A stretch of 64,000 bases of DNA, taken from Bilabrum cf. latius (Eukaryota). The position numbers and the translations under genes were made by a program. The notes beneath the pieces are model-generated. The model was not told where the DNA came from. It ran no database searches and worked only from the letters and a program-made list of their open reading frames with translations. Position 1 is the stretch's first letter. Every line of letters starts with the position of its first letter. The stretch is from the NCBI GenBank assembly GCA_965178125.1, contig OZ237765.1, forward strand, positions 1 to 64,000, given 5' to 3'. This document shows, in pieces, positions 18,704 through 61,200 of this stretch.

Positions 18704-18740
<37 letters not shown>

Positions 18741-35784: not shown

Positions 35785-37311
35785 TCAGATGGCCTCGCCC
35801 GCCACGAACCGACTCATGAGAGCGAAGGCCTCCTCCGGGCAGTACCCCGGGACCATGTGTCCGCATGGCTTGCCCACGCCCTTGACCGCGGCGAACTGAA
35901 GGCGGGGCTGACCGTCACCCCCCTCCCCCCCCACCGCTGCCTGCTCCTGACCCCTGGCGGGGGGCACGTCGAATCCCCTGACATAGCCCGCCACCTGCCC
36001 GTCGATCCCCCAGGTGCGCCACGCGCGGCTGCCCCGCGGCTGGAACGGCCCCGAGGCATTCCCGCTGGCGGGCGGGTACCCCAGCCCGTTGATGTTGTAC
36101 TCTGTCCCGATGGTGTTCACGCAGCTGTCACTGGTCCCTGAGTACACGAGGGCGCTGACAGGGGTGCCCGAGTCCGCGAGCGCGCGGTGGTAGTAGGGGG
36201 CCATCGTGGGCAGGTACTGCCGGAAGGAGATGTGCGGGGAACACACGTCCCACTCGAAGCTCTCGGGGCGCACGTGCAGCGCGCTGCGGACATCCGCCCG
36301 CCGGAAGTAGTCCACCTGCGCTGTCACGTTGATGCACGGCACCACCGTCTGCGAGCCCAGCCCGTCTCCCTTGTCCTCCCATCGCAGCGGATGCCCCGCA
36401 CTCGTCAGCGCCGCCATGGTGAAGCAGCCGCCCTGAGGGGAGGGCGCCGCGTTGCACCGCGCCAGGACGTTGTACGGGTTGATACCCACCAGCTGTGCGC
36501 GCATTTGTTCCCTGAGCGCCTCGCAGGCGGGGGAGGATCCCCCCTGGGAGTGGTGCCCCGGACCCCCGTCCATGCTCCCGTTGCACGCCACCACCGCGCG
36601 GTCGTACGTGTCCCCGCTCACGAGCGCGTGCATGCGCATGAAGTCGAAGTAGCGGGACCCGTCGCTGCTATCGAAGGAGGGGTTGCCCACCATGAACTTG
36701 GTCAGGGGAATGCGGGGGGCGTCCTTCTTGCTGTTGCGCTCCTGCACCTTGGTCACCAGCAGAGGGACCGTGTGCCCGCTGTACGACTCGCCCGCCAGCA
36801 CCAGGTCCACGGAGAGCAGCTCGGGGAACTTGCCATAGAAGGACACCAGCGCATCCAAGTTGGTGGCGGCCGCTACGTCGTCGCCCGTCGTGTAGTTGCC
36901 ATCCTTGGCATAGCTGAAACCAACTCCGCACGGGCTCGAGAAGAAGAGCAGAGCGTGGTCCTCCGCCCAGTGCACGGGCCGGAGAGACACCTACGGGCCG
37001 TCAGGACCCTACTGCACTTGGATAGGGCCCATTTCAGTAGTCTCACTGAACGCCATATCGCAGCCTGGGCCGCCTGTGTAAAACTGGACCAGCGCCTTGG
37101 GTTGTTTGCCAGAGGCAGGAGCAAAAAGCCAGTAAAAGATCTGCTTGTTGCCCCCGTCAGCGTCCAAGTACCCGGCCCAGCTCTTCGGGAGGGACTTACC
37201 CTTCGGAAAGAGCGGCAGACTTGACACTAGGTCAGCATCAGGAGAAGCAGAGGCTATCTGAATTGCAGCGGCGACTGCGCATGCAACCGAGATTCTACTG
37301 CCAGCCAACAT
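35785..37311 (-). CDS. Serine carboxypeptidase, peptidase family S10 (two in-frame TAG)
   Basis: Signal peptide, AGYL, IFYWLF, GGPGC, EMGP, SPCGVGFSY, GESYSGH, VGNP, YSGTSDSCV, GHMVP. TAG at 37009 and 36991 separate the track ORFs in one frame. Ends TGA. Confidence 0.9.
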
Positions 37312-38106: not shown

Positions 38107-40404
38107 TTAAACAACATTCCCCCGCGGTTCATACCCAGCTACCCCGCGCTTGGTCCTGGCCCTAGCCCCGCCGCTGCCACTTCCTCTGGCAGCAGCATTT
38201 CCCATCTCGTGGCCTAGCCGGAACAACCCATCCACACCATCTCGCCGCAAGATCCGCACCCAGCGCCGCTGCAGCTGCTCCAGCACAGGCCCGAACTGCA
38301 TGTAGGCGGGCTCCTCCTCGGGCCCAGGCAGCCTGCCCGCCGCTGGCCCCCAGCCTGCTCGCACACCCCCACCCCCTCCCTTCTTGCCCTCCTCCTCCTC
38401 GAGGAGGAGAGGTGGATCCAGGGTGCGGGGCCGCCACCAGCGCTGGATTAGGTCTGTGCCCAGTCGCAGGAATAGCTCTAGCACGGCCGCAATGCAGTGC
38501 ACCTCAGTATCCCTCCGGTCTAGTGGGGGCAGGGGCCCTCCCTCTCCTGCCGGCTCCCTGGCCCTTGAGACACGGCTCGAGCTCGGGCGTCCCATGGGCG
38601 GGACTGTGTCTGCCCTCACCCCGGGCTCCAGTGCGACCATTTCATCGCGTTGTTCCCTGAATACCCCCCTGCTGGCCCTCCTCCTCCTCCTTCCCCTTCT
38701 CCTGAGGCCCTGCCCCGCATCCCCCTCGGGGTCATCTTCTCGCTCGTGCCGCAAGGTAGATGCTTTGCTGCCGCTGGGCCCGAACAGGTCCTCCATATCG
38801 TCTTCATCTTCATCTTCATCTTTGTCTCCATGTTCACCCTGACTACTGCTTTTCGGTTCCGAATCGGGCGCCCTGTCCATGTCCCCACCCACAGCACACT
38901 GCACGCCCATCGCAGTACGCACCACCTCGAGGACCTGGGGGGATGCCCCCACCCACTACCCCTCGGCACCACCCCCCTCCAGTCCCCAGTCCACGAACAA
39001 GCCATCCAGCGCGGGCCTGTACAGCTCTGAGGACCCCTTACCGGCTGGCGCACTGTCCTGACGAGCGCCTCGAACACACCAGTGCAGGACCGACAGCAAC
39101 GCGGCCGACAACGGAAACCCGCGGGTGGGCAGCGTCTCACGTGACGAGTGCAGCCGTGCCCAGCCCCGCCTCTACTCCCAGAACACGGCCAGTCCAAGCA
39201 GCCCCAGCCTGCCCAGCGATCTGAAGTCAGGCGCGCAATCGAACCTCTGAAAGCCCAGCATCTCCCAGCCTGCAGAGGAGGGGCACCGCATGATCGCTGG
39301 CACTGGCACTGGCACTGGCAGTGGCGCAGATCCAGGGGCGCCGTTGTTCGCCTGTTCCTCAGCTGCACTCACCGTGCAAGGAGGGGGCGAGTCCTACCTG
39401 CAGCCCGCCCTCCAGAGCCTGAGCAATAGCGCACCTTCCCTGGCAGCGGAAGACGCGTCCATCCGACGAGCGGCTGCCGTGGCTGCAGGGTCACCAGTCT
39501 GTTCACCACTCTCCTGTGCCTATGACCACCCCTTCGCAAGTACCCCTGCCCCCTCGCCCTGCACCAGCCTGGCACGTGCATGCCCCTCCCCCTGCACCAG
39601 CCTGGCACGGGCATGCCCCTCGCCCTGCACCAGCCTGGCACGTGCTCGCACCAACACGTTGGCCACTGGCACGGCGGCCAGTTCTCGCATTGCTTTTGCG
39701 GCGATGGAAGCACGGATGATGGTACGGATACCTCTTCGGATGACCCCAGCGATGCGCCCCCGCGGTAGGGTGCCAGTGCCAGTGCCAGTGCCAGTGCCAG
39801 TGGTCATGAGTGCATCCTGGTGGGCAGGGAGAGGCAGAGGGAGGCCCAGGGAGAGGCACAGGAGGGCCTGGGCAGCAGATGTCCATCTGCCCGCGTTAAA
39901 ATCGGATCGAAACGCGTGTCGCAGTGACTCGGTAGCTCGATAGGCTCTGCTGCGCTGCACCTCACAGGTGCTCGAGAGGCTGGCCAATGCGCAGTGTCGC
40001 TAAGCAGGCGGCACCCGTCCCATTGCCTTCCACTGTCCCAATGACCGGTGACATGCGCACGCGCCTTCTAAACACTGCGCTAGTGAAGTGCACCCTTGCC
40101 CGATGTTGATGTCGCTTGAATCAGAGGCATTTGTACCACACAGCAGGGCTGCCCAGCATGCCATGCGCTCTTCGTCCCGAAAGTACTCCGAGTCTAGTTC
40201 ACGTACCGCCCCTTCAGGAAGCATACATATAATATCAGGCAATATCGCGTGCAGTGCTGATGTGATATCATCCATGCGTAGGGCAGCGTAGCTGTTTCCC
40301 AACAGTTCGAGCTGAATGGTACTTCGCTGCTGCCCGAGCCATCTTCGAAGTGTAAGCGGCGCAGCCCCGCATGCGGCTATGGCAAAGATAGGATACGCGT
40401 CCAT
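38107..40404 (-). CDS. Hypothetical protein (at least five in-frame TAG; internal 33-bp repeat x3)
   Basis: Track ORFs 40000-40404, 39520-39987, 39172-39372 and 38107-38952 are one frame joined at TAG (40000, 39520, 39394, 39172, 38956). Ends TAA. ARARLVQGEGH-type repeat x3. Confidence 0.65.
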
Positions 40405-40669: not shown

Positions 40670-43012
40670 ATGCCACAAAGCAATTATTTTTGCAGGAGCA
40701 CGAGCCGGCGAGATGTTAAGAAGCTGCATGGTAGTGCAAGCAGCGGAGACTTGGAGGCAACCACCTTTCTCTTGAAGACGGGGATAGATCCGAACTGCAA
40801 GTTCCCGTTCGTGAGAACAATGATATCAGCTCAATCCAGAGACGTAAAATGGTCGCCTATCCTTGGCTTAATTCATTGACTTTCAGTCTAGTACGCAAAT
40901 GCTTCCTCGGAGATGCTTTCTAGTCCACGTGCCGCAGATGCCGAGATCACCTACAGCAATTCAACTGGCAGCCCGTGCTGGCCACATCGAGATCATAAAG
41001 GTGCTGGCCGCCGCTGGAGGCCATGTTGATGCTGAATACGAGGTGAGAATGCCCTAGATATGTGTCCGCCTCCCATTCCTCGGAGATGCCATACGGGAGC
41101 AGGTACCTGCAGCAAGCGCCGTTACTTCTGTCCTCTGCACACCCCTTGGTCACTTGTCACACCCCGCAGGATACTACTGCGCCATTGCACATGGCAGCAG
41201 TGGGCAATCAGGCCCCAGCCATCTAGACCCTCATCGAGCTAGGGGCGAGGCCGGAGGCCAAGGACGAGGTGAGGAGGGTGCTCGCTCAATCTAGTGGAGC
41301 AGGCGCGCGGAAGGGCGAGAGGGGAGATTTCGTATCGCCAACCCCCAAAGCCTGATGCTGCCTGTTCTGTCGTATGGCCATGATGGATCGCCTGGTGGGG
41401 CAGGCGTACCTTTGAAGCATAGCCTTCTGGCCACACCTCCCAGTCAGGATTGTGTGGGTGGTCCCGCCACTTATTACATTGCGCATCACTCGGAAAATGT
41501 CACATCTTCATGTCCAGTAAACCCGACCGCCCGCAGTTTGGCTGGACACCCCTCCACGTCGCCGCCATGAGGGGGGGTCTGGACGCATGCAAAGCGCTCC
41601 TGCAGCACTGCCCCGAGCCCAACTCGACGGGCAAGGTGAGAGCGCATTCGTCTCATAGCATACACTTTCCTTTCCGTCCCACCGTCCCACCGTCCCACCG
41701 TCCCACCGTCCCACCGTCCCACCGTCCCACCGTCCCACCGTCCCACCGTCCCACCCTCCCACCCTCCCACGACCCCTCCATTCGACCGACCCATGCAGGC
41801 AGACATAACTCCCACCATGTGGGCTGCAGCCAACGGGCACCTGGATATACTCCGGGCCATGATGGAAGCAGGGGGTGACATTACCTGCAAGAATATCGTG
41901 AGTACAAGTATTGCGTGCACTTTGCAAGCACTAAAAAGCCCTCTAGGCTAGATCTAGGGAGTAACCGGCAGTCACCTGTGATCAGGCGCCAGCGTCTACC
42001 CCGATTTGCAAGCCACTTCAGTCTAAATTCGTCGCACCTTGCAGTTTGGTAGGACACCTCTGCACATGGCGGCGCAGGACGGCAGTGCGAGCACTCTGGA
42101 TGCATTGCTTCATGCGGGGGCGGATTTGGAGGCGATTGATCACGTGAGGACCATAGCTGCCAACGCAGACGCTCCCAGTGCGTAGCGATCGCATCCATCG
42201 TATCTAGTGCATCCATCCAGCGGGCGCATGGCACTTCGTCCCCCTCGCAAAGTGCTTGTAGCCTTTCGTTTACAATCGTCTACTATATCGCACTCGTCAC
42301 GGTTCATCGCACTCGCCACAAGTTCGTAGGAGTCTAAGACCCCTCTAATGTCGGCATGTTCTGACAGTGCAGGAGGCACGGCCGCCCTACTGATCGCAGC
42401 AGGGGCTGTGAGTAGATCGCGTGCACCGCCATTCCACCCACCTGGCGGTTCACCACGGCCCCATATCTACACACAGGTTTGCCCTCCTTTTACCCATTGT
42501 TGCAGGATATGTCCCCCCTACGTGCGATGAGCACCCCCGTTGCTTGTGCATGCAAGGAGTGCGGGTTCGAACCTCGGTCCTGCATCGAGGCTTTACTAGC
42601 CATGAGTCCCGAGTGGCACAGGGACCAAGCGACCCCCCTGGTGCGCTGGCGGCTGCGGAGGGGGGGTATGGCGCGGTGGAGGCGGGCCTTCGAGGCGCAC
42701 AGGGATGCTCGGCTGGTCTTCCGGGCGGCACGTGATGGCCGGCCGCTGGAGCTGCAGAAGCGGCTGCGGCTGGGGGCCAAGGCAGGCGGGCTGGAGCTGA
42801 AGGGCGAGGTGGAGACAGAGGCAGGGGAGGTGAAAGTGGTGGGCCCACTGGAGGCAGCCCGGCTGGGGGAGCATGGCGAGTGTGTGAGGCTGCTACTGGA
42901 GCAAGGCGGCGCCACTGGCATGATGCAAACGCACAGCGCCGCCTCCAGCAGTCGTACCGGTGAACTAGGTGCGTCGGAGACCCAGGGCCCGTTGAATTCG
43001 GATCCTCAGTGA
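40670..43012 (+). CDS. Multi-exon ankyrin-repeat protein
   Basis: Exons 40938-41042, 41170-41268, 41537-41635, 41799-41897 and 42045-42143 each encode one ankyrin repeat (e.g. FGWTPLHVAAMRGG, FGRTPLHMAAQDG). TAG at 41224 in AI[TAG]TLIELGA. Last exon 42506-43012 ends TGA. Start uncertain. Confidence 0.8.
41674..41770. repeat. Intronic minisatellite (CCGTCCCA)n
   Basis: About 12 tandem copies of an 8-mer inside the intron between two ankyrin exons. Confidence 0.9.
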
Positions 43013-43801
43013 TCCTACTGGTGTGGCTTCTTCGAGGTCCACAGGGTTGATGGTGATTGCCCTGCCTTCCTCAAAACCCCTGTCGTGGGCATGCATCTGT
43101 CTTTTCGAGAGGACCATGTCGTTGGCGTAGAGCACCGCCGGCTCGCCCTCCCCACCAACTGGACCCGTTGGGCACCATTTGGAGCCGGCGCCTTTGCCAG
43201 CGCAATCCCGACCACTTGACTGTCAGGATCTCCGGTAGCGAGCCATGCGAGCCTTCGTTTTGTATGTTGCGTGCCAACAGTTCTGCACGTCTGGTAAAAG
43301 TCAAGCATACACGCCATGGGGTGCTGCTGCCATAGCACTTTTGTGCTTGGAGGGGGTGGACGGTCCGTCCGTAAATAACGTATTGAGATAATCACACGGT
43401 GGACGGTCGCTGGCACCCGCGATTTCCACCCCCTCATCCACCCCCTAGGCCCTAATCCACCCCCCCGTCCACCCCCCCCTCCTCCGATCCGTCCACCCCC
43501 CCTCGCGGGGGTCTGTGCAATGGATGCAGCATTTTCTTGATTATAAACGGCAGAATTCCAAACGTGGCTCTACACACGTACTTGAAACTCTGGTGAGCGC
43601 CAAATAGCATCCTTGCAAATTTATGGATACTTCAATTTAATTTTAATATTGCTGTAGTTCATAGTAGCACCGGAGATTGAGCTACCTTCAGAAGCGGCGC
43701 TACCGGGCCACCGCTGCTGCTACCATATTGTTTCAAAGGATACTCCAACATCTTATTTCCCGCAGAGGTCGCAACTAGGAGTTGACGGGACTTCGACTGC
43801 C

Positions 43802-46800
43802 ATGGACCGTGCGGGTATCACCCATGACCAACCGGACAGAGCCGCGCTACTCGCAGCAGCAGCTGCAGCTGAATCAGTCTCATTGGATTCACAAGGAGCC
43901 TTAGAAGCTACTGCGGGATAGCTGGCAGTGCCAGCTGCCAGCGGGGCAGGGGCCACTGGCGCCGTCCCGCCGCCGAAGCTCCCCCTAACGGCGGCAGAAG
44001 CGATTAAAAACTTCGGTCAGCTGACAGAGAAATTGAAAGAAGTTGGACACTCATTGGGAATGAGGCCGCCTGTAGTGAGTTTCTCGATCGCTTCGTCCTC
44101 CGACTACACCAAGTGCCTCTGCCTGCTCGAGCCGTGGCTTGGTGTTGGACTCAAGAACTACAAGCCGCAGTGGGGATCAACGGGTAACAGTCGGACTAAC
44201 GAACTACAAAAAACTACCAAAGACGTCCTGGAGCTCATGGGCCACGCTGCCGCGCGAGGCTGGACGGAGGAGCTCGAGGAGATGATGAAGCAGTTGCAGT
44301 TGCCCACACTGTTGGCAATCGATGAACTTGATGTAAGCCAGGCTTCACCAATCTCACCCTTGCAATTTTGACCCATCCCACAGGATACCAGAAGTATTCC
44401 ATACCCCCATACCCCCATACCTTCCTACTCCCCTACCCGCCTACCCCCGCGCCAACACCACTTCCTCCCGCAGGTCCTAAAGCAGGCCTTGAAGATGGGC
44501 ATCGAGGACCTGTCCTGGTTCCTGCGAAAGAACGAAGACAAGCACGAGGTCGCACCCACAGGTGCTGGTGGCTGGGGTGAGGGTGGCTTTGGCTCATCCT
44601 CGTCGAAGGCACGTATCCAGTTCGGCACCGCTGCTCTCCGGTGTGTATAGGCGGGCCGATTAGACCACGCCCAGGTCTTTATAGATGAAATCGTTGTGGG
44701 GACAACGTGCGATTTGGACATGATGGATGCCTGTATCGCCGCTGCTGCTATTGGAGATGTAGCGTTCCTGCGTGAGCACGTCCCGGATACGATACAGAAC
44801 GAGGGCAGTGTGTTCTCTACCAGTCAATTGCATTTCATGTTGCTCCACGCCGTCGAAAACGGACAGAAGGCTGTGTGGGACCAGTTGCTGTCCATGAGAG
44901 AGATTTTGCATGGGGTAATGCTCTATCTGGTCTGCCGGGAGATCGCTCCTGCCTCGATCGAGACTTTGCTCGGCTGGCTCGAGACTCGACGACAAGTGAG
45001 TCTGTGGAGACGGCATACTTTCCTATCGAGACCCGGCCTTGCCCAGTCATGCTACTCCGCACAAAGACCCAAGGATCCGATCAACCTGACGTAGATATGC
45101 TGTACTTCCGTTCACTTCCCCCTCTCCTGCTACACCACAGCTTGAAGCGCTTTGCCTTCTCGCTTCACGTACCGGGCCGGTGGCAGTACTAGCAGCCAAG
45201 TGGATGCTTGCTAACTCCAAGTTCGGCGACGACGTAAGAGCCGCTGGTAGGGCAGTATTCTCGACGTATTGACCATGTTTGCTGCGCAGGAACCCCATCT
45301 CCAGCTCATTGCACCGAACTCGACTCTTGGACACCCTCCGCATCAATTTGCAGAATACTTGGATGTACTGCCCCCTCCGTCATGCCGCCAGTACTGGCAG
45401 CGAGAGCCTGTTTGACCTGCTGGCAGACGCGGGTGCCCCCATGCAGCTGTCCAGGGCGGACGTGAAGGAGGCGTGGATGATTCAGCATGACGCCAGCAAG
45501 GAACCAGCACGCTAGAGTGCGTCGCAGGATGAGACAGAAGGTCTATTTACGTCGAAAACCCCCCTGTCCGCTCGACCGACCCTGGCCCAGCTTGCCGCCA
45601 GAGGTGGTAGCGTGCACATACTACAGCGAGTCAGAGCGTAGCTTGGTGAAGGCGCCTTTCACCCGCCCATTGAGCTGGTGGAGTAGCATGGGTCACTTTT
45701 GTGGATGGCAGTCCGTGAACTACGACTGGAAGCTTGTTCCTTCCTGACCAAAGAGCTGAGCGTGGATTCATACGCACCGCCTGGAGGGTCAGCCGGTAGC
45801 AATGGGGGGGTGATCAAGGCCGCGACCATCGCCTGCATTGAGCGGCTGGAGTTACGAAGGTGGGGGTCTACGTACCAAAGAGACCGTGATGAAGTCAAGA
45901 AGAGCTTCAAAGGCGTGCTGGACGCACTGCTATCAGCAGGCGCCACTATCGATGATATCGATGCTGTGAGGGCGCAGCTGCTGCTACCCACCCCCCATGT
46001 TGGTAAGACGGCTAATCTAGGTACACCTTGTTAACCCCGCCCCACTTCCCCTTTCTGCATCACAGAAAGGCCGAACCCCACTGATGCATGCTGTCGCCGG
46101 AGGGGCCATCCCAGCCGTACGAGAACTCCTAGCAGTCGGAGCTGATCCGCGGCTCACGGACGCCGATGGCCGCAACGTGATTTAGCATGCCACGCCGGAC
46201 CACCGCTTGTTTGAGCTGTTGCTGGATGCTGGGGCGCCCGTCACGATGCCCGATGGCAAGCCATACCCCATTGAGATGTTCTAGGTCGGAGATAAACAGA
46301 CGGTTACTAGGCGCTCGCTGTCGGCCCTCGCCGTGCTGGTGGCCCGAGAGGGGCCCGCCGCCCTGCTGCGTGCTGAGGACCGCTTTGGGGACTATTGCCA
46401 CCTGGAACGTGTGTTCATGGGAGGAACTGAAGTCCAATATGGCGGGTTTGGGCAAAATGAGCCCGCACTCGACTACGAGGAGATCATGGGTCTCCTGCTG
46501 GCCGCCATTCGGGCCATTCCCCAGGCGGCGTGGCAGGAGCGGTAGGTGAGAGCCGTTGCAACCAGCTAAACGTGCCTTCTGCATGGGTAGTTGTAAATAG
46601 TTCCATCTCGATGTGCCAATCACAGCTGGGTTTTTACCATAACCGTTGGCCATCCAACACCGCAGCAGTCGCACGACATACTCAGGCGCGTTCTAAGTCT
46701 ATGCACCGCCTGGTCGGCCCACGCGGTGGGCGTGCTCGCGGGCCGGCTGGACGTGGATCTGAATGGAATCGAGTAGCAGGCCTTTATAGTAAGTCCGCTT

Positions 46801-48608
46801 GATCTGGATGCGTTCGTTGCAGCCTGATCATAGCACCATGTGCAAGGAGGCTGGGCGATTTGAGCGTGCGACTTGCCAGGCACCAGCTTCCCACTGCACA
46901 CATTCGTGCCGTCTCACTCGTTGATGGATACCGCATCCATCCGGTGTCACGACCTGGACGCAGTATCTATTCAGATAGCGCTGCGCAACCGCGGCCAGCT
47001 GCACATGGATTGAATGCCGCTACTGATTTCAACACATCCCCGCAGCCCTGTGACACTGGCAAGCAGGCCGTCCTCCTGTCACTGGGGGTACCACCCACCG
47101 CTTTGTGCACGAAGGAAACGAACGGATTTTTCGGCATCTTGAAGCCCCTCAAGGTCTTAGGTACCCGGTACTGCATGCTAAGGTCAATTGCAGGCACCTT
47201 TTCTCGTGTCCCCAACTTCCGTCCGCTGGCTAGAGACGACCTGCTGCTGTTCAGGCATGCGGCCGATGCGACCAGGGGTGTGCCAATCGCGATTCGGGCT
47301 GCCCAGGAAGGACGGCCCCTCGAGCTAGCGAAGCGCTTGAAGGTGGTGCTCGCCACAGGTCTTCTAGTGCGGTGCACGCCAGTAGATTTGAAGGTGCTTG
47401 GGTCGGATAAGTTGCAAGCACTGGCCGACGCTGCTCCTGGCGAGGGAGTCGAGGTTATGGGATGCACGCCGCTAGTGGCCGCTGTTGCCCAGGGGCATAT
47501 TGAGTGTGTTCAGGTCATCCTGGAGGGAACACGGGAGGCGGCGGACACGCAAGCGGCGCGAGTACAGGCAGACTAGGGACCCAGGTGGGGTGACGGCAAA
47601 GGCAAGAAGGATGGGAGCTTGAAGGCGGAAGAGGTCAAGCAGCTGCTGTCCAAGGCCATCCTCTCTGGAGCGCTGAGGCAGCAACTCGCGGTCGAAGTCC
47701 GTGGGGGAAAGGGGCTGACTGATGGAATCGCGATTCGAGTGCAAATAGACCCAGCTGGCCTTGCTTCGGCCCTGGAGAGGCACGACTAGCCTAGCGATGC
47801 AGCTGCCCTGGTCGCTGGATGCATCGAGGGCCTTCTGCAGGAGGCTTCAGAGAGGCTGCATACTGCTGATGGCGCTGTCAAGGCACGTGCCAGGGCTGTA
47901 TTGGGGGTGGTTGCAACCGCCGATATGGAGGCGGTGAAAGCTGCCGGCGCTCGGGCGGATGCAGAGTTAGAGCGCATTGCCGCTGAAAGAGAAGGCTTGA
48001 AGAAGCAGCTGCGAGCCCTCGAGGATCGATAGGAATAGATTTAGTAGGCGAAACGGGTCGAAGCCGTGCTACCTCACCTCATGAAAGCGGCGACCACCCG
48101 GGCTGAGAAGGCCCTCGAGGAAGTGGTGGGCCCCGAGAGGGCATGGCTGCCGCTGGGTGTGGGCGATGAGTTTAGTCGCATTGAGGGCCTGCATGGGGAC
48201 GAACCCTTGAAGCAAGAGCTGCCTGTATTTGTCCCCAAGGAGGGGACGTCCGGTGCAGACGGGAACGGAGCTGGGGGCCGAGAGGCTTAGGGAACAGTAG
48301 ACGGTGAGATGGCTGAAGCAAAGGGGTAGTTGGCCGTGTCACTTCGAGACCGCCTTAGAGAGGCACTGGGTGGGGAGGGGTTGGGGGCGTGGTGGCACGA
48401 GGTCTAGCGCGCCGTGCAGGAGGCCCAGGGCGGGGGATAGGTATTTTGGGGGGGTGCAGGAAGAACTAATAGGGGAAATGCACGAAGGAGAGTATGGGGA
48501 AATGCTTTCCTTGGAGGCCAGGCCGGGGGTCAGACGGCGACTGGGGGCGCTTCCGCTGGCCAGCTTAACCCTTTTGAAGTTCCTGCACGGCTGCTAGACA
48601 TTCTTTGA
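43802..48608 (+). CDS. Large multi-exon ankyrin-repeat and coiled-coil protein (more than 12 in-frame TAG)
   Basis: Ankyrin motifs CPLRHAASTG, GRTPLMHAVAGG..GADP..DADGRN, GCTPLVAAVAQGHIECVQVIL. GT-AG introns near 44334, 44995, 45234, 45965 and 46546. Final exon 47046-48608 is open except for TAG and ends TGA. Some exon boundaries uncertain. Confidence 0.7.
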
Positions 48609-49032
48609 GTTCGCGACGATTGTCCTTGAAGACTCCTGGAATGAGTCCGAGCGGGTACCGGTCATCCTGATCCAGTACCCGAGCTGTCTCCTTTGTTGCA
48701 AAAGGATATCAGCATCAGCTTGCTACTTATACCAGACACTGGCAGCTGATGTGATATCATCGATACGTAGGGCACTGCTGGTAGCGTGGCTAATTCCCAA
48801 GAGGGCCCCGCCCCCGCGGGGGCGGTTGTACGTTGCTGCCCGAGCCATCTTCGCCGCTTGCAGCCCCGCATGGAGCTATAGCATAAATAGGATGTCCGTC
48901 AATACTCAGCGTGTGTGGCTCAGGCTGATGCTTGTGCTGCGTGCTGTGGAGGATTTTTGTGTGCATTCGGAGCCGGTGCACGTCAACTAGACTATCCATT
49001 CAGTGCTTCTTTACTCCGCTTATAGTGTAGTT

Positions 49033-52000
49033 ATGTTGGGCTGGCTGGCATCAATCTTCTACATTGTGCATGCAGACACGGCCGCGGCAGAAGTTTGTAA
49101 CGCTGGCTGCACTACCATTGATGGAGTTATAATTGGATCCGGCGGCAACCCGGTTTCTGCTTCGTCCGTCGATGAATGCTGCACAAAGTGCAACGAGCAG
49201 TTCGGATGTTTTGCTTTTACGTATTTGTCAGGGTAAGATTCGGCCTAGCACGCACCCCAGTTGGCTTGCTGCTTCACATGAAGACCGTTGGGCGAACTCC
49301 TGCAACACACTCACACTTGCAGTGGTGGCGGGTGCTATTTAAAAGACAACACGGATACGCACATTCCTACACCAGGTCGTGTGTCTGGCAACCGGAGTGC
49401 ACCAATGCCGTCACCGCCGAAGCCACCGACACCTGTGCCCATCCCGGCCTCCTGCTTGCCCCCATACGACCATTTCGACTATTGCAACATGTCGCTGCCT
49501 GTGGAGACCCGCTCCCAGTCTCTCATCTCGCTTTTGCATGATAACGAGAAGCCCCCTCTGCTCACGGCCCGCGAGAGCCCCAAGGGCAACGTGAGCCGCA
49601 TCGGGTTGGTGGAATACGATTACGGTCTTAACGCGGTTCACGGTGTGGAGTCCAGGTGCGGGAGCAAGAAGAGCTGGGACGGAAATACGATTCCGAACTG
49701 TCCAACATCCTTTCCGTCTCCCAACATGCTGGGCTGCGCCTTCAACGAGACCCTGTGGGAGGCCATGACCGATGTGATCGGGCATGAGATGAGGTCCCTC
49801 TGGCTGCAGGGCGTCGGGGAGAACCACGGCAACGGGCTGCCACACATCGGTGAGAGAGAGGGAGAAAGGGAGAAAGAAGACTAGCAGGTGATACATCTAG
49901 CTGAATCCGATGGCTGTCAACATTCCTTGAGGTGTCCTCACCAGGCATCCCATCGCGCACTGCCACTGGCGCCATGTCCCTTCCACCGCTCTTGACCCCC
50001 ACCCTCGCAGGCCTCGACACGTGGAGCCCCAACATCAACGTGTGCAGGGACCCGAGGTGGGGCCGCTGCCAGGAGGTGCCCAGCGAGTCTACCTTCGTCA
50101 ACGGCCGGTACGGCGTCAGGTATACCCGCGGGCTGCAGAACGGGGACGATGACCGGTACTACCGCGGAGTGACGTGCATCAAGCACTGGGCGGCGTACTC
50201 GCTGGAGAACTACCACGAGCACTCGAGGCTGAACTTCACGGCCAACGTGTCCGACTACATGCTGGCCGCCGTGTACCTGCCTGCCTTCAAGGAGGCCGTG
50301 ACTAAGGGCAACGCGCAGTCCGTCATGTGCTCGTATAACGCCATCGCGCTGCAGAAAGGCAACAACTCGACCGAGTTCGGGCCAAGTGTGCCCACGTGCG
50401 CCTCCCCCTTTCTGGCAAACATCCTGAGGGAGCAGTGGGGATTTACCGGTGAGATTGCGAGGGTCTTTGCATTGCTGGCTTACCATGCCAGGAAATATTC
50501 GTTTGCAGTTTCCACGTTGCGAATCATTGGATACTGCGCGCCCAGATTCTTCTCTTCTTGCTGTTTACCCCGATTTACAGGTTACGTAACCTCTGACTCA
50601 GGCGCCGTCGATTTCATCTATTCGACCCACCACTACGTGGACAGTCTCGAGAAGGCCGCCTGCGTGGCCATCAAAGACGGCGTCACGGACATAAACAGTG
50701 GAGATGTGTACCGTGATCACCTGCTCTAGGCAGTGGCCGAAGGGCTCTGCAGCATGGACGACGTGAACCGTGCCCTGAACAACTCGCTGCGGCTGCGCTT
50801 CGAGATGGGCCTGTTCGACTCGCACGAGGGGCAGCCCTACTGGCACGTGAGCGAGCAGGACGTGAACACGACCTACTCGAGGGAGCTGAGCCTGTTCGCC
50901 GCCCAGCAGAGCACCGTGCTCCTGCGGAACGAGGGCAGCATCCTCCCGATCAAGAAGGGGGCCAAGATCGCGGCTGTGGGCCCCCACGCTGATGCCAACC
51001 AGGAGCTCCTCGGCAACTACCTGGGCCAGATCTGCCCGTTTGAGGGGTACAACTGCGTGCCCCAGCCGTACGTGGAGCTGCAGAAGGCCAACCCCGGTGG
51101 CTCCGTCACCTTCGAGCACGGTTGCGACGTGGACTCGCAGGACACGAGCGGGTTTGCAGCCGCGGTGCAGGCCGCCAAGGAGGCGGACGTGGCGGTGATC
51201 TTCGCCGGGCTGAGCCAGGAGGTGGAGAGGGAGGGATACGACCGCGTGAACATCTCGCTGCCCGGCGTGCAGCCCGAGTTCATCCGTGCCGTGCTGGCCA
51301 CGGGCACTCCAACTGTGCTGGTGCTGATCAACGGCGGCTCGGTGGCCATCGACGGGCTTGCCACGGAGGTGCCTGCCATCGTGGAGGCCTTCTACCCGGG
51401 CTTCTTTGGCGCCCCTGCCCTGGCCAGCGTGCTGATGGGGGACTACAATCCCGGCGGCAAGATGCCCGTGACCATGTACGAGTCGAGCATCGTGGACCAA
51501 GCCAACTTCCTTGATATGGACATCGCCCACCCGCCCGGTCGCACTTACCGTTTCTACACGGGTAAGCCCTCCTTCGCTTTTGCGCACGGCCTGTCGTACA
51601 CGACCTTCACGGTGTCATGGGACAGCGAGCAGGTGGGCCAGGAAGAGACCCAGCTGTGGACCGGTGCGGGGCCCATGTCTGCGGGAGGGAGCGGGCAGGT
51701 GTCCAAGACCTACACGGCCAGGGTGACCAACACGGGGGACAGAGAGGGCGACGAGGTGGTGTTCCTCTTCGTGAAGCCGCAGGAGGACGTGGACGCCGTG
51801 CACGGGCCTCACCCCGACGGTGGTGACCCGGGGGACCTGCCCCTCATCAAGCAGCTGGCGGGCTTCCAGAGGGTGCACCTCAAGGCCGGCGAGTCCACCA
51901 CGGTGACCTTCAACGTGGACTCCGATACGCTGGCCATGCCTCGGCGGGGGACTGGGCGCACGGTGGCGTGCCCCGGCACCTACGTGCTGGAGGCCACCAA

Positions 52001-52109
52001 CGGCGTGGACCAGGTGGCGAGCGCGGTGGCCCGTCTGGTGGGCGACGAGCGCGTGATCGACGCCTCTGTGGAGAACGCGCTGCTGGCCACCGGCGGACGG
52101 CCCCAGTGA
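49033..52109 (+). CDS. Secreted GH3 beta-xylosidase/arabinofuranosidase-like enzyme with N-terminal PAN/apple domain (one in-frame TAG)
   Basis: CCTKC..GCFAFTY..CYLK (PAN), Pro linker, PTSFP, WSPNINVCRDPRWGRCQEVPSE, KHWAAY, VMCSYN, GYVTSDSGA, EREGYDR, YPG, GRTYRFY. Introns 49233-49322, 49850-50010, 50449-50580. HLL[TAG 50727]AVAEG. Ends TGA. Confidence 0.92.
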
Positions 52110-52405
52110 TCACTGATCCGGTCTGATTGGGAGGGAGGGGTCCATTGGCAAGTGGTGTCGAACGCCCAAGAAATGGTCCCAATGCAGTCTGTCGAGTGTA
52201 GCCGGTTGCTGCGGTAGGCGTCCCCCGACAGTTCTTTTTACGTCGTACTTCATGCGTAGTTTCGTTTGCATGCTCGTTTGATAACATGCTCTCCTGGTGT
52301 CATAGTGAAGATGAAGAATTATAATGGCGAAGCGAGCCCGGCCCCAAGTGAACTCCGACGGACAACCGCAGGCAGCCCCTGGTGATCAGGATTGGGCGCG
52401 AAAAA

Positions 52406-53959
52406 ATGTCGATATCAAATGATTCAGGACTACATCAAGCTGAAGAGCGGTTCATGGCAGCCAAGACTCGGTTGCTGTCTCTTTTTGGTAGCAGCGAAGG
52501 CAGCTCGGCTGCGGACTCTGGCAAGGAAGCTGAACCTAGCCCGTATGCTGAGCGTAAACACGAAGCTACGGATCAAACTTCAGCACTGGATTATCACAAT
52601 GATTCGTCTCGACCATCAACTGCGATGCGTGCCAATTCTGCAATGCATCTGGGAGCGCTGCCTGTACAGCACGGTCCAGCCCGAGACAGCGACATCTTAC
52701 AATCAGCAGAGGTTTCGCTCATTTTGCACGAGCCTAAGCACCATGAAAGTATATTCAGTAGCCGCCATGCCAAGCGAGTCACTGGCCACTTGGGTGAAAC
52801 GTGCTGGGTGGAATACAAGACTTAGTACGAACAGCAGATGGATCATCTACCAGATACCTACAAAGGCACGTATCCAGCGGATCATAGCAAGCAGCTCTCA
52901 AGGGACACGACTGAAGATCGAGAATCGGGCGCCGTATTGGCAGCAAGCCAGGCCCGAATGTCGGCTTCCCGCGAGTGCTCGCTTCGGCCGTTCGACGGCA
53001 CCAGAATCCCAGCGATCCCACTGGCAGCGGGCGGCGCCGAGGCCGAAGTCGCACGCGCGCAGTTATAGTCTCAGCCGCATGTGGCACACAAAAGTCGTTC
53101 CAGAGGCAGAAGGCACCCGAGCTTCAGCAAATAGAAGGCCCCCACCGCAGGCCCAGACCGGCGATCGATCGCAACTACCAGGTCCAAGCCCGCCTTCGAC
53201 CTGCGGACCGGCCCCGCCCACGAGAAGGCACTCAGAGAAGAAATGCAGCGCGCAGAGCAGCAGCTGAGGCGCAGGCACGCCCTCGAGGTCAGGAGGAGGA
53301 GGCGCCTGCTGCACCAAATGGGGAGGGGCAGCTTGGGAGCAGCGGACAAGGGTGGCTCATACATGTAGGGCATGGCTGGCACAAGGCCAGCGAGATAGGA
53401 GGCACAGAAGTCGCCAGGGCCTCGGTTGGAAGCAGGGCAGCGACGTACTAGCGGGGCAGGCGGCGGGCGGACCACTAGGGCTCGGACTCGGAGTCGAAGC
53501 ATGAGCAGGCAGGTAGATCTAGATCGAGGCAGCTAGATCTAGGGGGAGGCACGGATGACTCCGGTTGGAAGTCATCCCGTGGACGGATACAGCCAGGGGG
53601 GGTTGTCGCACCGCCGGTCCAGCGCGGCTAGCAGTGGCAATGAAACGCGGCACGGACCGTCACGAGCGGGGCATGCGGGCCAGTCACGAGCGGGGCGTGC
53701 GGGCCAGTCACGAGCGGGGCGTGCGGGCCAGTCACGAGCGGGGCATGCGGGCCAGTCGAAGGGGCCAAGACAGGCAAAAAAGAGGTAGGATCGTCTAGCG
53801 AGAGCGATCGATCGCACAGGGCTCAATTTACATGCAGTTGCAAGCTCGCTTGCAGAACCCGCCCGATCCGATGAGTTCGCTGTAGAGCTCCAGCCGAGCC
53901 AGGGCCGACCGAGCTCAACGCGAGGGTCTTTGCGGACAGGACTGTGGGTACCCGGGTAA
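52406..53959 (+). CDS. Hypothetical basic low-complexity protein (about eight in-frame TAG)
   Basis: Track ORFs 52382-52825, 52838-53068 and 53555-53788 share one frame broken only by TAG. Ends TAA at 53957. Contains a 24-bp tandem repeat x4 (SRAG[H/R]AGQ) at ~53659-53756. Confidence 0.55.
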
Positions 53960-54706: not shown

Positions 54707-57700
54707 ATGGATCAGTTCAGTACTTAGAGAAGCTTTGAACAAAGTGATTTGACTCAAGCGAACAAGAGAATAGCTGAACTTCAGGAGATTGCGGGTTCAT
54801 TACGTAGCGCCCTAACAGCTGCTGTGCATAAAGGTAAGACTATTCTGCTGTGGATCGCAGGTATTTGCGGTACTTGTTATATTTACGTTTCATTTTTACG
54901 TTGCTGGTTTGGATTTGCTCTCTTCTCTGGGAGCATTCGCGCGTTGTCACACTGGCTGGCTTGTTCAGCGCCTGTCACTCTGGTCGGCTGGGTGCAATAT
55001 TACTCTTGGAGCGGCCCCTTTATTCAGAAATTGTATTGGTCGAGTCATGAGTGTTGATCATGTTGGTCTGGGATGCTCGAACCATAGAATTGCTTGCAAT
55101 GGAGTAGGACAGGATCCAGCAGACGGTGTGACGTGCTGCCTCGTGCACACTGCACCTACGCGATTTTGACGATTTTCTACCTTCGCAGGCCTTGTTGACC
55201 CGACTCAATGGGATGAATCTATTCGATAGTAGTGTTCTCAGTCATCAGCGGCCGCATATTCAGTATCGTACGCTGCGAGCAGGCCCACGGACACGGACAC
55301 AGTCTCATCGGCGCGATCGTCGCACCAATCCGATTCGGGTCGATCCTCCTCACGCGGTGCGCAAACTGCGCAATGCTCTGTAGGAAGCGTAGGAGGTAGC
55401 TCTAGTAATGATGTGAGTGCATACTTTGCCTGGTGGCTGGTCTACCGCTACTTGTTTACGTGATTATGTTGTCTACTTGTTCCGAGACAGCGGCGAGATT
55501 CGGTCCTTTGTAGCAATATTTTGTCGCAGAATTAGCTTTCATCATCACCATAGGTTGGTAGCAGGAAGCGCGAACGATCAAGGCAAGGCCGAAGCGACTC
55601 TCAGGCGCCGGATGAAAGAGCCGCGAAGCGAAGGAATACCGATGGGGGTGATGATACGAAGAGGGGTGGTTGGGGTGAAACTGGTTTCACCGGACTAGTC
55701 TAGCAGTCCCAAGGAGCTGTACAGACGACGGCTGAGGCTCGCGAACAAGCTGACAGCCTCCTAAGCCTCAGCCTCGCTCCTCTTCTGGCAGTGGCGAGCG
55801 CTGCCGAGGAGCACGAGGACCCGGCAGTCAAGATAGCGTCTGCCAAAAATTCTTATCCCAGCACTAGGACAAGCAAAAGCGCCAGTTGCTCCGCTGGGCA
55901 GCTGCAGGCTGCTTCCCCCATTGGCAGCCAAAGACATGCCAAGGCGGGGCAGCGCGCGGAACGGAATAGACTCGTGACTCTAGCGGTGCTTGCCCCGCGC
56001 AAAGGCAACCCTTCTCTCGCTGACGTGGTGGTGCTCCCCTGCAGGCGAGGGGAGCACCCCCTGCTCGGATCGAAGCAGGCCGCCGAGAGCGGTGACACGG
56101 TTCGAGTGAGGGGGAGGCGTGTGTTGCGGGCCTACAGCGGGCTGCTGCTGCGGTATAACGAGTCCGGAGCGGATGAGCAGGGGCGAGGCCAGGCCTAGGC
56201 TCATGCTGGCGGGGAACAACAAGCCCAAGCCTCGAGTCCCTCGGGAAGCGGCAGCAGCAGCAGCAGCAGCAGCAGGCTCCGGCGCTCCACCGCGGCCTCG
56301 AGCAGCCAGCGGGCGGAGAGAGTCCGTCAGCAGGCGATGTGCGGGTGCATGGATGCAAACGAGGGGAACTGCTCAGATCTGAGCGACCATGCAATGCACC
56401 TGATCAGCGGCGCGGGCCAGCCAGTGCACCCGTCGTGGCGGGCGGCTCGGCAGGCGTCTCGCCACCGCGCGCTTCGCCTGTTTGAATCTGACGGCGTGGA
56501 TGTGGAGGCACTGACCCGCGACTGGGTGAAGTGCACTGCGCACGGCGTGTCTCTGGCTGACGCAGAGAGCGTCATCGAGCAGCAGGCCAAGAAGGAGGCT
56601 GCGCGGGCGACGGGCCCCACCGCTGGTGCCGGTGCTTCGGCGGAGGGGGAGGGGGAGGGGGGCAGCTACGGCGGTGGGGCAGCCTCCTCCAACGTGGGAG
56701 TCGAGGCGCCCTCGGTGGTGAAGGGCAAGCTGTAGGTGTGGGAGCGGCAGGTGGTGGCTGCCTTCGTGCAGGCCGTGGAGAGGGGCCGTCTGCTAGTGGC
56801 GAGGGGGGAGCTGGCCAGGGACCTGAGGGCGGGGGTGAACGCGAGCAGGCCCAAGGAATTCTTCGAGAAACTCGTATCCAGGAGGAAGCTCAACCAGAGG
56901 CTCGTTGGGCTGCTGCAGCCCAGGCGCATGCGGTCCGACGTGTTCGTGGGCATGGTGGAGCAGAGGACGCAGGCGGGGGGCCGGCGGGCTGGTGGTGCAT
57001 CTTCAACTGTCCCTGTGCCCGCACCGCCTGCTGCCCCCGCTTTTGCCTCGGCATCTGTTGCGAGGCTTGGATAGCATGGGCAGTGGCAGGGACATTCTAC
57101 GCCGGGTGTGATGGGAGTCTCGGCTGCCTTTCCCGTGCCCTCGCAAGGAACGGGTGCGGGAGCGAGGGGCTATTCCCAGGCGGCGCGGGGCCTCGTCAGC
57201 TTGTCGGGCGGTTCCATGCCGCATGCATGGGCCTCCTAGGGTGAGCGTGTGCCGTGCTGGAGCATCGGCGGGAGCAACAGCATGAGTGGGCGATGGGAGG
57301 GGAATGAGCAGCAGGCCCTAGGGTCTGCAGGCGGCGCAGGGAAGTCTTTGCCCCCCGGTGTGCTCTCCGGGGGTGTGACGAGCGGAGCCCAGCACGGACG
57401 GCCTCAGTCTCCGAATCAGGCCCAGGCTAGGGGTGTCCAGCCAACAATCCCGGGTGCAGATGCAGATGCAGATGCAGGTGCAAAGGCAGGCGTGCTCTCG
57501 TGGGGATCTATCCAACTGCAGCGGATGCAGCAACCACTTCCTTACCAGCCTATCCCGCCAATGCAGCAGCATCTGACGCTGCAGATGCAGGGGCAACGGC
57601 AACTTGCAGGCGGCAGCAGCCAGGTGTCTTCCGTTGGATTCGCAGTGCCGCACGCATCTCGGGATTGGCAGTAGCCCCCAGCTGCAGGGACTGTCTTGTA

Positions 57701-58088
57701 TGCCTCGAGCACAGCCAGCGCGGCGGGCTCTGCGTGGTACCCTGCCTCTGCCTCTTCCGTGGCACTCCTCGGCGGCAGCAGCGGAAGCAGTTGCATCGGC
57801 GCGTCTACTTCCACCACTAGCAGCGGCACTAGCAGCAGCAGCGGATTTGCAGGTCAGCTAAGCAGCAGCTCGGCGCCCGGAGGCCCGGCTGTGGCAAGCT
57901 TCACGAGTTTGCAGCTGGAGGCAGAGCTGCAGAGGAGGCAGCAGGGGCAGCAGCAGCGTGAGCACGCGAGGCAGGAGGAGCAGCGGAAGCAGTGGGAGCA
58001 GGTGCAGCTCATGCAGCGACAGCTTGGGCAGTAGAGATAGCACATGATGTCCCTGCAGTCGCAGCAGCAGCAGCGGTCGCACTCCTGA
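54707..58088 (+). CDS. Hypothetical Ser/Gln-rich protein (more than 10 in-frame TAG)
   Basis: Introns at ~54834-55188 and ~55413-55529. Track ORFs 55791, 56337, 56736, 57249 and 57696 are one frame joined at TAG. C-terminus QLMQRQLGQ[TAG]R[TAG]HMMSLQSQQQQRSHS-TGA. Confidence 0.6.
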
Positions 58089-58245: not shown

Positions 58246-61200
58246 TCACATGCCGCCTTCTTCTTCTCCTGGCTTGAGCACGTCCACCAGCACCACACCA
58301 AGCCCAGTCCCCGCCGCGATCAGACCAGAGATGTACAGGCTCAGACCAGACGACAGTAGCGCGACGGTAGCAGGCAATCCCATCACGCGGACTGGATTCA
58401 GCTGCATCTCGGTGTCCAGCCCGCGGGTCACCAGGTAGAGCGCGTGCCGCACTCGCTCCAGCCTCGTCCTCGTCTCAGGACCCATGGGCACGGGAGGCGC
58501 CACGATGAGCTCCTGCACGGTGGCTTCAATCCGCGTGAGCCTCCTCCTTTGAAAGGCACTGGCACGGTTCACCTGGATGCCGTAGTACATTAGGTATCCG
58601 AGCGCCGTCTAGAAGATGAGTGCGAGCACCACCGTCTGCGTGAAGAGCACGATGTACTCGTCTCGACTGAAGAGCGCGCTCCCCGCTGACGCCGCCACGA
58701 GCCCTCCGATGAACATGAGGGCAGCAAAGAGCGTCCCCGCCGCGAACAGCCCCGTGTACATGTTGATCCTAAGCATGTAGGGCCTGCCCACGTCCATTAC
58801 AGTATTGCGGACGTGCCACCACAGCAATAGGTTCTGCGGGTACAGAACGGGCAGGTGCAGCCGATGCAGTGCTCTGTGCATCATTGCCTGCGTGTCCTCG
58901 TGCCTGTGGTACAACGCCCGGTCCACGATGCGTCTCCTCATCGCTGCACCGTTCCACTGGGCCATGGACATTCGCTGGCATATCCCAGACTCCACGTATT
59001 CCTCCAGCAGACCCCCGTCCTACACCTTGGGCTGCTCCCAGCCGACCGCCCCGTGGCTGTGCCCCGCCATCTGAGCGATAGAGGTCACTTGCGGCAAGAG
59101 GGGCCCCGCCACCACCTGTCCCTACCCCTGTCCCTGTCCCTGGAATCGAACCCCCCTGCTGTGGCCCGCCCTCTGGCCCGACGCAGAGGGCAGTCGAAGC
59201 AGTCCGCGACCCCCGGCAGCGACTGAGGAAGACTGGCCGCTTGTTCCCTCACCGCTGCTCCTCACCCCACCCTCCGAGTCATCCGGGTCGGGCCCGGACG
59301 AAGACGCCGCGCTGCTGCCTCGGGTGCGCCGCCTAGCACCCCCTTGTCCCTCCGTGCCCCCTGTGCCCCTGCTCTCCGAGCTTGAGGCGCGGGACCTGCT
59401 GTCCCCATACGGGGATAAACCCAGCCGCAAACCGCTGGAGGCAGCCCGAGGCACTCCCCCTGCAGGCCTCCTTGCCGTGCTCCTGCCCCGCTGTGCATCC
59501 AGCGCACCCTGCCGGCCCAGCGGCACCCCCCCGCCCTCGCTTTGTCCCCTGCGGACCGGGCCTGGAATGCCACGACCCTCCTAGTCGCTGGGCACCCACA
59601 CCTCCCCTGCCGATCCCCGGTGCCGCGCCCCGCTACCCCGCTGCCGCAGCCCCCCCTCCGTGCCCGCTTCCTCCGAGACCGCGTGCGCCACCGGTCCATG
59701 GCGTGCGCCACCGTGGGGCACTCTTGGGTCCACCAGAGCCACCTGAGTGAGAGAGGCGCGGCCTCTGGCCCCCGTTGCCGTGCTGCTGGTGGGCAGCAAC
59801 ATGTCCTGTTCACCCGCGCTGCTGCCCCCTCCCGCCGACATCACTGATGCGTGCTGGCTGAGCACCTGTCGGATCTGCATGCTCTCCCGCCGCAGTCTAG
59901 AGGCGGTGTTGCGGCTGTGCACCCGCTTGCGGTCCATACGACGCTTGCTGCGAGTGCGCTGCCCCTTGCCCCCTGGGTTGGGAGTGCCCCCGCCCCCATC
60001 CCCGTGCCCCGCCTCAAGCTCCGCCGCCTCCCTGACCCCCTCCATCCCCTGTATGGCCGCCACCAGAGTGGCGCGGTGGTAGAAATTGGACCACACGACA
60101 GAGTGCCGAGCTGCCTGGGCCAGCAGGAAGGTCGTGCTGGGGGCACTGTCGGTCACGCCAGGCACGTCCACCACCTGCTTCAGCGCGTCGTTCTCCTCCT
60201 CTATCCTGCGTTGAGACCGCAAGGACTTGGAGTCCTCACCGGTGGGCTAGCCTGCAGCGGCACCAGTCCCCGCCCCTGCGGTGGTGCTGCCCTCCGCTCC
60301 GGCCGCGAGCAGCCCAGCGGGAGCGGCACTGCCATCCACTGCAGCCCCCCCTCCAGGTGCGCCCTCCTGCTTAGTCTAGCCCTGTTCCTCGTCTACCGGC
60401 GGCATCCCACTCTTTGCCCTCCTCTTCCTGTGCAGCTCGTGCAGCACACCATCCATAGCCTGCTTCTGCTGCGCTGCTATTCGCCCTTCCTAGGCCTGCA
60501 GCTGCATGGACCTTACCGTGTCTTCCATCATGTTGCATGTCCCCGCCTGCGCCCACAACTGATTGGCCGCACCCAGCCCCTGCACCACCTCCAGCGGTGT
60601 CTCCCTCGCCGCCACGTCCCAGTCGTGGCTGGCCAAGGCCCGGGCCGAGGAGGGGTCCAGCAGCTGGTGCAACATGCGGGCTGCTTGGTAGCGCCTGTGG
60701 TAGTCCAGCGAGGCCACCACCACAAACGAGACCTCCAGCATGGCGTTGATGGTGGTGGCGATGACATAGCAGCTCAGCAGCAGGATCCCTTCAGCCGTGA
60801 TGGGCAGAGTGCCCTGCACTGCCCGGATGACCACAGAGGTGCTGAACACCAGCAGCGAAAGCACGAACGAGAGCCGCAGCAATTTGCCCGCCACCATCGA
60901 CGCCCCCGACTTGATGTGCGAGGCCCATAGCACGTACCACAGGAGCATCTTCAGGGGCAGCGTGGGCAGCCCGTCCTCGTTGGTGCCCATTGCTAACCCG
61001 CCCAGCCGGGACAGCTCCACCCCGCTCTGACTGCTAGAGTGCACGCTTACACTGACGCTCGATGCCTCATCAGCTACACTTCCCGTCCACGCCTGGCTGT
61101 ACCCATGCGCAGACTGACCCATTGACAGCTCAGATCCCAGCCCAGCCCTCCGACGAGCACTGAGCTGCTGCTCCCGCGCCCCGCTGCTGCCACTGGAGCC

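Follow-up and report, generated by a model that had tools for sequence, protein, structure and literature searches.

Four TAG codons within six positions are probably read as glutamine in a GC-rich nuclear genome

The fornicate Iotanema spirale provided the first example of a code in which UAG alone is reassigned to glutamine (Gln) and UAA stays a stop (PMC5304391); the same reassignment is described for three ciliates, Protocruzia tuzeti, Hartmannula sinica, and Trochilia petrani (PMC11687900). Elsewhere UAG alone is read as leucine (Leu), in a rhizarian (exLh) and a ciliate (PMC11687900, PMC5304391), and TAG as serine (Ser) in Scotinosphaera (PMC8271138). As far as the excerpts extend, nuclear genomes that separate UAG from UAA are few—Iotanema, three ciliates, one rhizarian, and Scotinosphaera—and the mechanism proposed for UAG-only codes combines a tRNA-Gln(CUA) unable to read UAA with a change in the GTS motif of eRF1 (PMC5304391, PMC9161772). 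Here we analyze a window of 64,000 nucleotides (nt), positions 1 to 64,000 of contig OZ237765.1 (GenBank assembly GCA_965178125.1), in which a plus-strand gene carries the cluster TAG GAA TAG ATT TAG TAG at 48030-48047. Judging from the sequence, we consider it likely that this nuclear genome reads TAG as Gln and keeps TGA (mostly) and TAA as stops, and that the cluster encodes Gln-Glu-Gln-Ile-Gln-Gln (QEQIQQ) within an amphipathic helix. Most likely, its TAGs would be four ordinary Gln codons within a helical protein segment, a local consequence of a genome-wide UAG-to-Gln code of a kind that is known but rare.

The case for TAG as a sense codon rests on the whole window. Under the standard code, open reading frames (ORFs) of at least 150 codons total 34,285 amino acids (aa); taking TAG as sense raises the sum to 57,473 aa, and taking TAA as sense to 40,299 aa. 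In-frame TAGs number 84 in 15 long ORFs (12,196 codons in all), with a maximum of 12 in one ORF, beside 481 CAG and 95 CAA, such that TAG makes up about 12.7% of the putative Gln codons. Pfam or PDB support exists for TAG-bearing genes of six kinds (S10 serine carboxypeptidase, GH3 enzyme, FANCM-like helicase, AMPK-gamma-like CBS protein, GH79-like glucuronidase, and ELMO). Leaky or programmed readthrough, with one stop at the end of an ORF, is not the pattern seen in these ORFs, where TAGs are many and fall in N-terminal and catalytic regions. These counts support the claim of a preliminary description of this DNA that TAG is decoded efficiently as Gln rather than by leaky passage of stops.

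That the residue is Gln is suggested by several sites. In the FANCM/Hef-like helicase ORF (17173-20307, minus strand), a TAG at 19897-19899 occupies the invariant Gln of the TPQ motif (codons ACT CCT TAG), a site that is Q in all three PDB alignments shown (human FANCM, 9el5_A; Pyrococcus Hef, 1wp9_A; RIG-I, 3tbk_A). A second TAG, at 59122-59124 in ORF 58249-62688 (minus strand), replaces CAG in a Gly-Gln repeat (CAG GGA CAG GGA CAG GGG TAG GGA CAG), and in another ORF a TAG lies within a poly-Gln tract (CAG CAG CAG TCG TAG CAG CAG). Two more TAGs, at 37009-37011 and 36991-36993 (minus strand), belong to the S10 serine carboxypeptidase gene (Pfam S10, E=2.2e-70); the protein P0070, which is 98% identical to this peptidase (316/321 residues), carries Q and E, respectively, at these two sites, and because P0070 has sense residues there, TAG codons vary between very close relatives. 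Within three residues of TAG, the residue ratio is 2.03 for Gln, 1.01 for Glu, 0.71 for Leu, and 0.82 for Ser. The TPQ site, the CAG-GGR repeat, and the first S10 site support the cognate Gln decoding that had been proposed from the cluster. Sites that inform on the residue are few, and apart from the single Glu in P0070 none points elsewhere.

TAA, on the contrary, behaves as a terminator. When TAG is read as sense, TGA closes 12 of the 15 ORFs and TAA the other three (53957-53959 and 5195-5197 on the plus strand, 38107-38109 on the minus strand). Beyond each TAA the in-frame codon score drops below that of other frames (deficits of 6.0, 19.2, and 25.8 nats), and guanine-plus-cytosine (GC) content falls from 0.65-0.70 to 0.48-0.55. 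In ORFs delimited by TGA only, TAAs occur near the ends only, e.g., at codon 68 of 1549 or at codon 126 of 1172, the latter just before the first Met, and late TAAs are followed by more TAAs. The Pfam- or PDB-aligned stretches (1565 codons) hold six TAGs and no TAA. In the S10 and GH3 genes a TGA stands at the point where the homologues terminate; the other ORFs were defined with TAG as sense, and some of them may end at a TAG. Independent support for TAA as a stop thus comes from its positions in the TGA-only ORFs and from the loss of signal after it, in a small TAA sample from one subtelomeric region. The stop pattern fits NCBI table 15, not table 6, in which TAA is read as Gln as well. TGA as the main stop is expected at the window's GC content of about 60%.

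The cluster itself was described accurately, and the codons of 48027-48050 are CGA TAG GAA TAG ATT TAG TAG GCG. Under table 15 the four TAGs in six codons correspond to residues 286-291 of the predicted host protein (P0001), preceded by ...LKKQLRALEDR and followed by AKRVEAVLPHL.... The host frame, bounded upstream by a TGA at 46800, runs from 46803 to the TGA at 48606 as 601 codons with 10 TAGs, no TAA, and no TGA, vs. 11 to 30 stops of all three kinds in each of the remaining five frames of 46700-48800. Past the cluster the frame stays open, as was also claimed, for 186 TAA- and TGA-free codons (48048-48605) up to the TGA at 48606-48608 (plus strand), its first stop other than TAG and the presumed terminator unless an intron intervenes. 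The other in-frame TAGs of the gene lie at 47574-47576 (Gln134) and start at 47787, 48288, 48327, 48405, and 48438 (plus strand).

Translation through the cluster is supported by codon usage and by predicted structure. A six-frame codon model was trained on the 14 other ORFs; in leave-one-out controls it chose the right frame for 111 of 124 coding chunks of 85 codons (median margin 9.2 nats). It replaced an earlier codon model (1565 training codons) with which sense and antisense frames were not separable. The gene frame is preferred by +48.5 nats over 47175-48029, where the 32 codons directly 5' of the cluster (47934-48029) score as coding, and by +14.8 nats over 48048-48302, i.e., the 85 codons after the cluster, and the preference becomes ambiguous over 48303-48605. 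The in-frame signal therefore persists 3' of the cluster, yet collapses past the three TAA terminators, a difference that argues further for efficient decoding.

AlphaFold2, run on the single sequence, predicts a long helix through the cluster at residues 251-318 (47925-48128, plus strand), with predicted local distance difference test (pLDDT) values of 76, 80, 80, and 69 for successive blocks of residues 251-290. A heptad test of the same helix places hydrophobic residues at 11 of 20 a/d positions (P=0.0012, 5000 shuffles) and supports its amphipathic character. The d positions are V, A, I, L, L, I, E, M, A, and V, the sixth being Ile289, encoded by the ATT within the cluster and in register with upstream Ile and Leu residues; each TAG therefore counts as one residue in the periodicity. 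The same test gave no significant heptads in the neighboring helices (residues 206-248 and 368-417). Coding signal and heptad periodicity both run through the cluster. The coiled coil of the preliminary description retains its heptad pattern and predicted helix, and is better worded as an amphipathic heptad helix, a prediction of modest confidence.

Four other explanations have to be weighed against these data. The cluster could be the 3' end of a 114-nt intron (47934-48047, plus strand; GCG|GTGAAA ... TTTAGTAG|GCG) and never reach the ribosome, the TAG run being its acceptor region. This is the sole interval found whose removal takes out the whole cluster and keeps the local frame, and only one donor-like site was found within 400 nt upstream. 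It has GT and AG boundaries and is in frame, its length is divisible by three and within the range of the three introns of the nearby GH3 gene (89-161 nt), and TAG is also present inside the second of these. However, the body of the proposed intron (47934-48029) looks like coding sequence: its margin of 4.9 lies at the 78th percentile of 343 coding chunks and is reached by 0.8% of 262 non-coding ones, G occupies 56% of its first codon positions, matching the coding sequence on either side, and the heptad pattern crosses the proposed boundaries. Its splice sites are also unlike those of the GH3 gene, where the donors (GTAAGA, GTGAGA, GTGAGA) all fit GTRAGA and all three acceptors are pyrimidine-rich and end in CAG, whereas the candidate donor GTGAAA lacks the +5 G and the candidate acceptor, a TAG in purine-rich sequence, has no pyrimidine tract. 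We judge it improbable that this interval is spliced. Only slightly less improbable is that the region after the ankyrin-like repeat is a decaying or never-translated ORF whose TAGs say nothing about decoding. Such decay would agree with the homologue-free residues 135-477, with the raised TAG share of the host ORF, and with the ambiguous coding signal past 48303, but it would have to leave 601 codons free of TGA and TAA where other frames have about one per 100 nt, as well as a strong frame-specific codon signal up to 48302 and a significant heptad periodicity. Decay would also turn CGA into TGA, and the CGA adjoining the cluster is intact.

A dual meaning of TAG, by which the four tandem TAGs terminate here, the protein ends at ...LEDR, and the rest is 3' untranslated region, seems very improbable to us. 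While ambiguous stop/sense codes are known in other eukaryotes according to the literature excerpts, tandem stops are a described fail-safe arrangement (PMC6879139), and the databases contain the N-terminal domain in short proteins, the gene frame after the cluster is still the best one for 85 codons and free of TAA and TGA for 186, whereas after each of the three TAA terminators both frame signal and GC content are lost. TAGs also lie deep within other ORFs, a catalytic motif included, and TGA is the terminator of S10 and GH3, the two genes with C-termini alignable to homologues. We give as little weight to TAG as a sense codon for a residue other than Gln, i.e., Glu, Leu, or Ser, as in other lineages. 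Glu at one of the two TAG sites in P0070 and D or E at the single TAG site in GH3 homologues would suit the first of these, and TAG-to-Leu and TAG-to-Ser nuclear codes do exist (PMC5304391, PMC8271138). Against them stand the invariant Q of the TPQ motif, the TAG that takes the place of CAG in the Gly-Gln repeat and the one within the poly-Gln tract, the Gln of P0070 at its other TAG site, and the enrichment near TAG of Gln and not of Glu, Leu, or Ser.

Several observations weigh against Gln decoding of the cluster or fail to support it where they might have. No tRNA gene was found in the 64-kb window by ARAGORN, no Rfam match at gathering thresholds, and no eRF1 gene among the window ORFs scanned. 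Just one of the TAG sites alignable to distant homologues falls at a conserved Gln; alignable sites elsewhere face N (AMPK gamma), T or a gap (cathepsin A), D or E (GH3), and T (GH79), and others face M and K in low-confidence parts of FANCM. These non-conserved sites are variable positions and speak neither for nor against Gln. The absence of TAA inside ORFs is partly circular, because TAA and TGA themselves served to delimit the 15 ORFs. For the cluster region itself, no homologue of residues 135-477 was found in near-length, shorter-length, or all-length representative libraries, and conservation therefore cannot confirm coding there. Family relatives have 111-259 aa and extend little beyond the ankyrin repeat, which would also fit a short protein, and the mean AlphaFold2 pLDDT is low overall (43.4), with the best confidence at residues 251-280. 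Finally, the host ORF is rich in TAG, which provides 10 of its 32 Gln codons vs. 12.0% elsewhere (binomial P=0.0033), as a decaying gene could also be; with the cluster left out, the share is 6 of 28 (P=0.11), i.e., no excess.

How unusual the cluster is was assessed by permuting the TAG label among the Gln positions of the 15 ORFs (84 TAG of 656). Four TAGs in six codons arose in 1.15% of 20000 within-ORF and 0.66% of across-ORF shuffles. Such a cluster is unusual per 64 kb, but a TAG-as-Gln genome tens of megabases in size would be expected to contain several. TAG pairs at most two codons apart number seven vs. 2.2 expected (P=0.007), or four vs. 1.8 (P=0.10) without the host gene. Pairs separated by one codon recur outside the cluster (q-D-q, q-P-q, q-I-q, and q-R-q, with q for TAG), at 61240-61275 (minus strand), codons 980/982 of 31450-34506 (minus strand), codons 395/397 of 52352-53956 (plus strand), and codons 857/859 of 55464-58085 (plus strand). 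Across the 15 ORFs, the TAG share falls with rising GC content at third codon positions (GC3; Spearman rho=-0.60, p=0.017), and because it drops at high GC3, TAG looks like a minor, non-preferred Gln codon. The cluster is best explained by chance recurrence of this minor codon in a gene of weak codon bias, rather than as a special signal; its TAGs plausibly arose from CAG by C-to-T changes, and a special function is not needed. A more speculative proposal, which we regard as possible but doubtful, is that an unrecognized variant-code lineage, GC-rich and with TTAGGG telomeres, spliceosomal introns, and TGA as its main stop, reassigned UAG alone to Gln independently, that TAG is still a young and disfavored codon, and that runs such as QEQIQQ could slow or terminate translation and thereby tune the yield of full-length protein.

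By analogy with other UAG-only reassignments, decoding would rely on a cognate tRNA-Gln with anticodon CUA, unable to pair with UAA, and the eRF1 of the organism would not recognize UAG. We infer this mechanism from those systems because neither a tRNA-Gln(CUA) gene nor an eRF1 gene lies in the window.

The proposed host coding sequence (47175-48605, plus strand; 477 aa with 10 TAGs) begins at the first ATG that fits the family N-terminus. In the family alignment, a conserved N-terminal domain (FR.A.DA....AA.EGRPLELAKRL) followed by one ankyrin-like repeat spans 47175-47573, and these first 133 residues end just 5' of the first in-frame TAG at 47574. That alignment (A1) has 16 invariant columns across eight sequences, namely the host protein, a paralogous stretch at 42653-42901, and six database proteins, and one pelagophyte ankyrin protein is among the relatives. 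In a library of 1.84 billion proteins, 63 matches were obtained, mostly to multi-repeat ankyrin-like proteins aligning around residues 80-130, and in all of them the best-scoring stretch lay within residues 12-167. The Pfam Ank match to P0001 (E=0.0013) scores 19.4 bits, against a curated cut-off of 21.1 bits, and tblastn of P0001 against the window returned, besides the N-terminal paralogue (42653-42901), only one weak match at chance level. The short relatives may reflect standard-code gene callers that halted at an in-frame TAG, or they may be truly short proteins. The C-terminal part of the host protein would be lineage-specific. The 3' part of the gene, beyond about 48303, is uncertain: a donor-like GTGAGA at 48304-48309 (plus strand), identical to two of the three GH3-intron donors, lies where the frame signal fades, and an intron may begin there and give the gene another 3' end; the gene must end before about 49034, since the GH3 gene apparently starts there.

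The surrounding sequence is that of a chromosome end. A (TTAGGG)n-type telomere, (CCCTAA)242, occupies 1-1453 and is directly followed by 6.3 copies of a 53-nt G-rich subtelomeric repeat (1455-1789). Satellite arrays with a period of 173-174 nt lie at 8696-9146, 9650-10791, and 11260-15244 (the last with 23 copies and 98% matches), and the satellite region is strongly strand-asymmetric, with a GC skew of about -0.5 at 12-14 kb. The long ORFs encode an S10 serine carboxypeptidase, whose best named homologues are 27-39% identical (plants, Naegleria, a dictyostelid, and others), a GH3 enzyme with an Fn3-like domain, a DEAD/Helicase_C helicase nearest FANCM and Hef, and further ELMO, WD40, AMPK gamma-like CBS-pair, and GH79-like glucuronidase domains, together with several ankyrin pieces. 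The telomere, the eukaryotic domains, and the GT-AG introns of the GH3 gene identify the window as the end of a eukaryotic nuclear chromosome. We presume that a (CCCTAA)242 telomere, subtelomeric satellites, a stretch of at least 64 kb, and 60% GC are unlike ciliate macronuclear DNA.

The GH3 gene, beta-xylosidase-like and located at 49034-52109, has an apparent start with a signal-peptide-like MLGWLASIFYIV, and then a Cys-rich segment CCTKCNEQFGCFAFTY that may be PAN/Apple-like. Its GT-AG introns number at least three (49234-49322, 49851-50010, and 50449-50579; 89, 160, and 131 nt); the third shows as a gap in the PDB alignment, and the first two are deduced from frame changes and boundary sequences. 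Upstream of the host gene, ankyrin-repeat ORF pieces in differing frames (40872-46566, plus strand) probably belong to one or more multi-exon genes, and within this region an 8-nt repeat CCGTCCCA, present 12 times at 41674-41770, encodes a Pro/Thr-rich repeat. Long low-complexity inserts (poly-Ser, Gly/Ala runs, (GQ)n, (EAG)n, (GT)n) occur in many window proteins, including those of ORFs 17173-20307 and 58249-62688 (minus strand) and 20804-23638 and 55464-58085 (plus strand); one such insert separates the two helicase lobes of the FANCM-like protein.

If TAG is Gln here, standard-code annotation will truncate or split most genes of this organism, which may explain the uniformly short database relatives of the host family. 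If the host protein is made, trypsin should release the peptide QEQIQQAK from it, and contiguous, telomere-anchored sequence makes a tRNA-Gln(CUA) gene and an eRF1 change directly testable. In NCBI table 6 both UAR codons are Gln; this code is used by many ciliates, Dasycladales, Cladophorales, Trentepohliales, hexamitin diplomonads, Streblomastix, and Amoeboaphelidium. Like the window, table 6 codes read TAG as Gln and have TGA as the main terminator; they differ in that TAA is also Gln, whereas in the window no supported coding sequence contains TAA, which instead terminates three ORFs. Amoeboaphelidium was considered and set aside, its genomes being about 40% GC (PMC10608142 Table 1) vs. 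about 60% in the window. Stop-codon readthrough resembles the window in that a standard stop is passed, often with insertion of Gln, yet it concerns a single stop at a gene end and is of low efficiency, whereas here up to 12 TAGs occur per ORF, catalytic motifs are included, and four fall in six codons. The rhizarian exLh (Leu) and Scotinosphaera (Ser) share with the window an uncoupling of UAG and UAA meanings in a non-ciliate nuclear genome but differ in the residue, which the window evidence suggests is Gln.

In the literature searched, with subscription journals mostly outside it and supplements excluded, no GC-rich non-ciliate UAG-only-to-Gln system was found beyond Iotanema. The ciliates P. 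tuzeti, H. sinica, and T. petrani share the reassignment and retain UAA as a stop, but UAA is their preferred stop in the available text (PMC11687900), rather than TGA as here. The same holds for Iotanema spirale, in which TAG is Gln, TAA and TGA terminate, and the implied decoder is tRNA-Gln(CUA): UAA is its primary terminator (PMC5304391), whereas TGA ends 12 of the 15 ORFs in the window. Iotanema is described, in the text available, from transcriptome data only, and the window adds a GC content of about 60%, a (TTAGGG)n telomere, and GT-AG introns. The lineage is probably not among the named UAG-only-to-Gln cases, and it would stand beside them as a GC-rich counter-example to the AT-rich organisms that mainly terminate at UAA.

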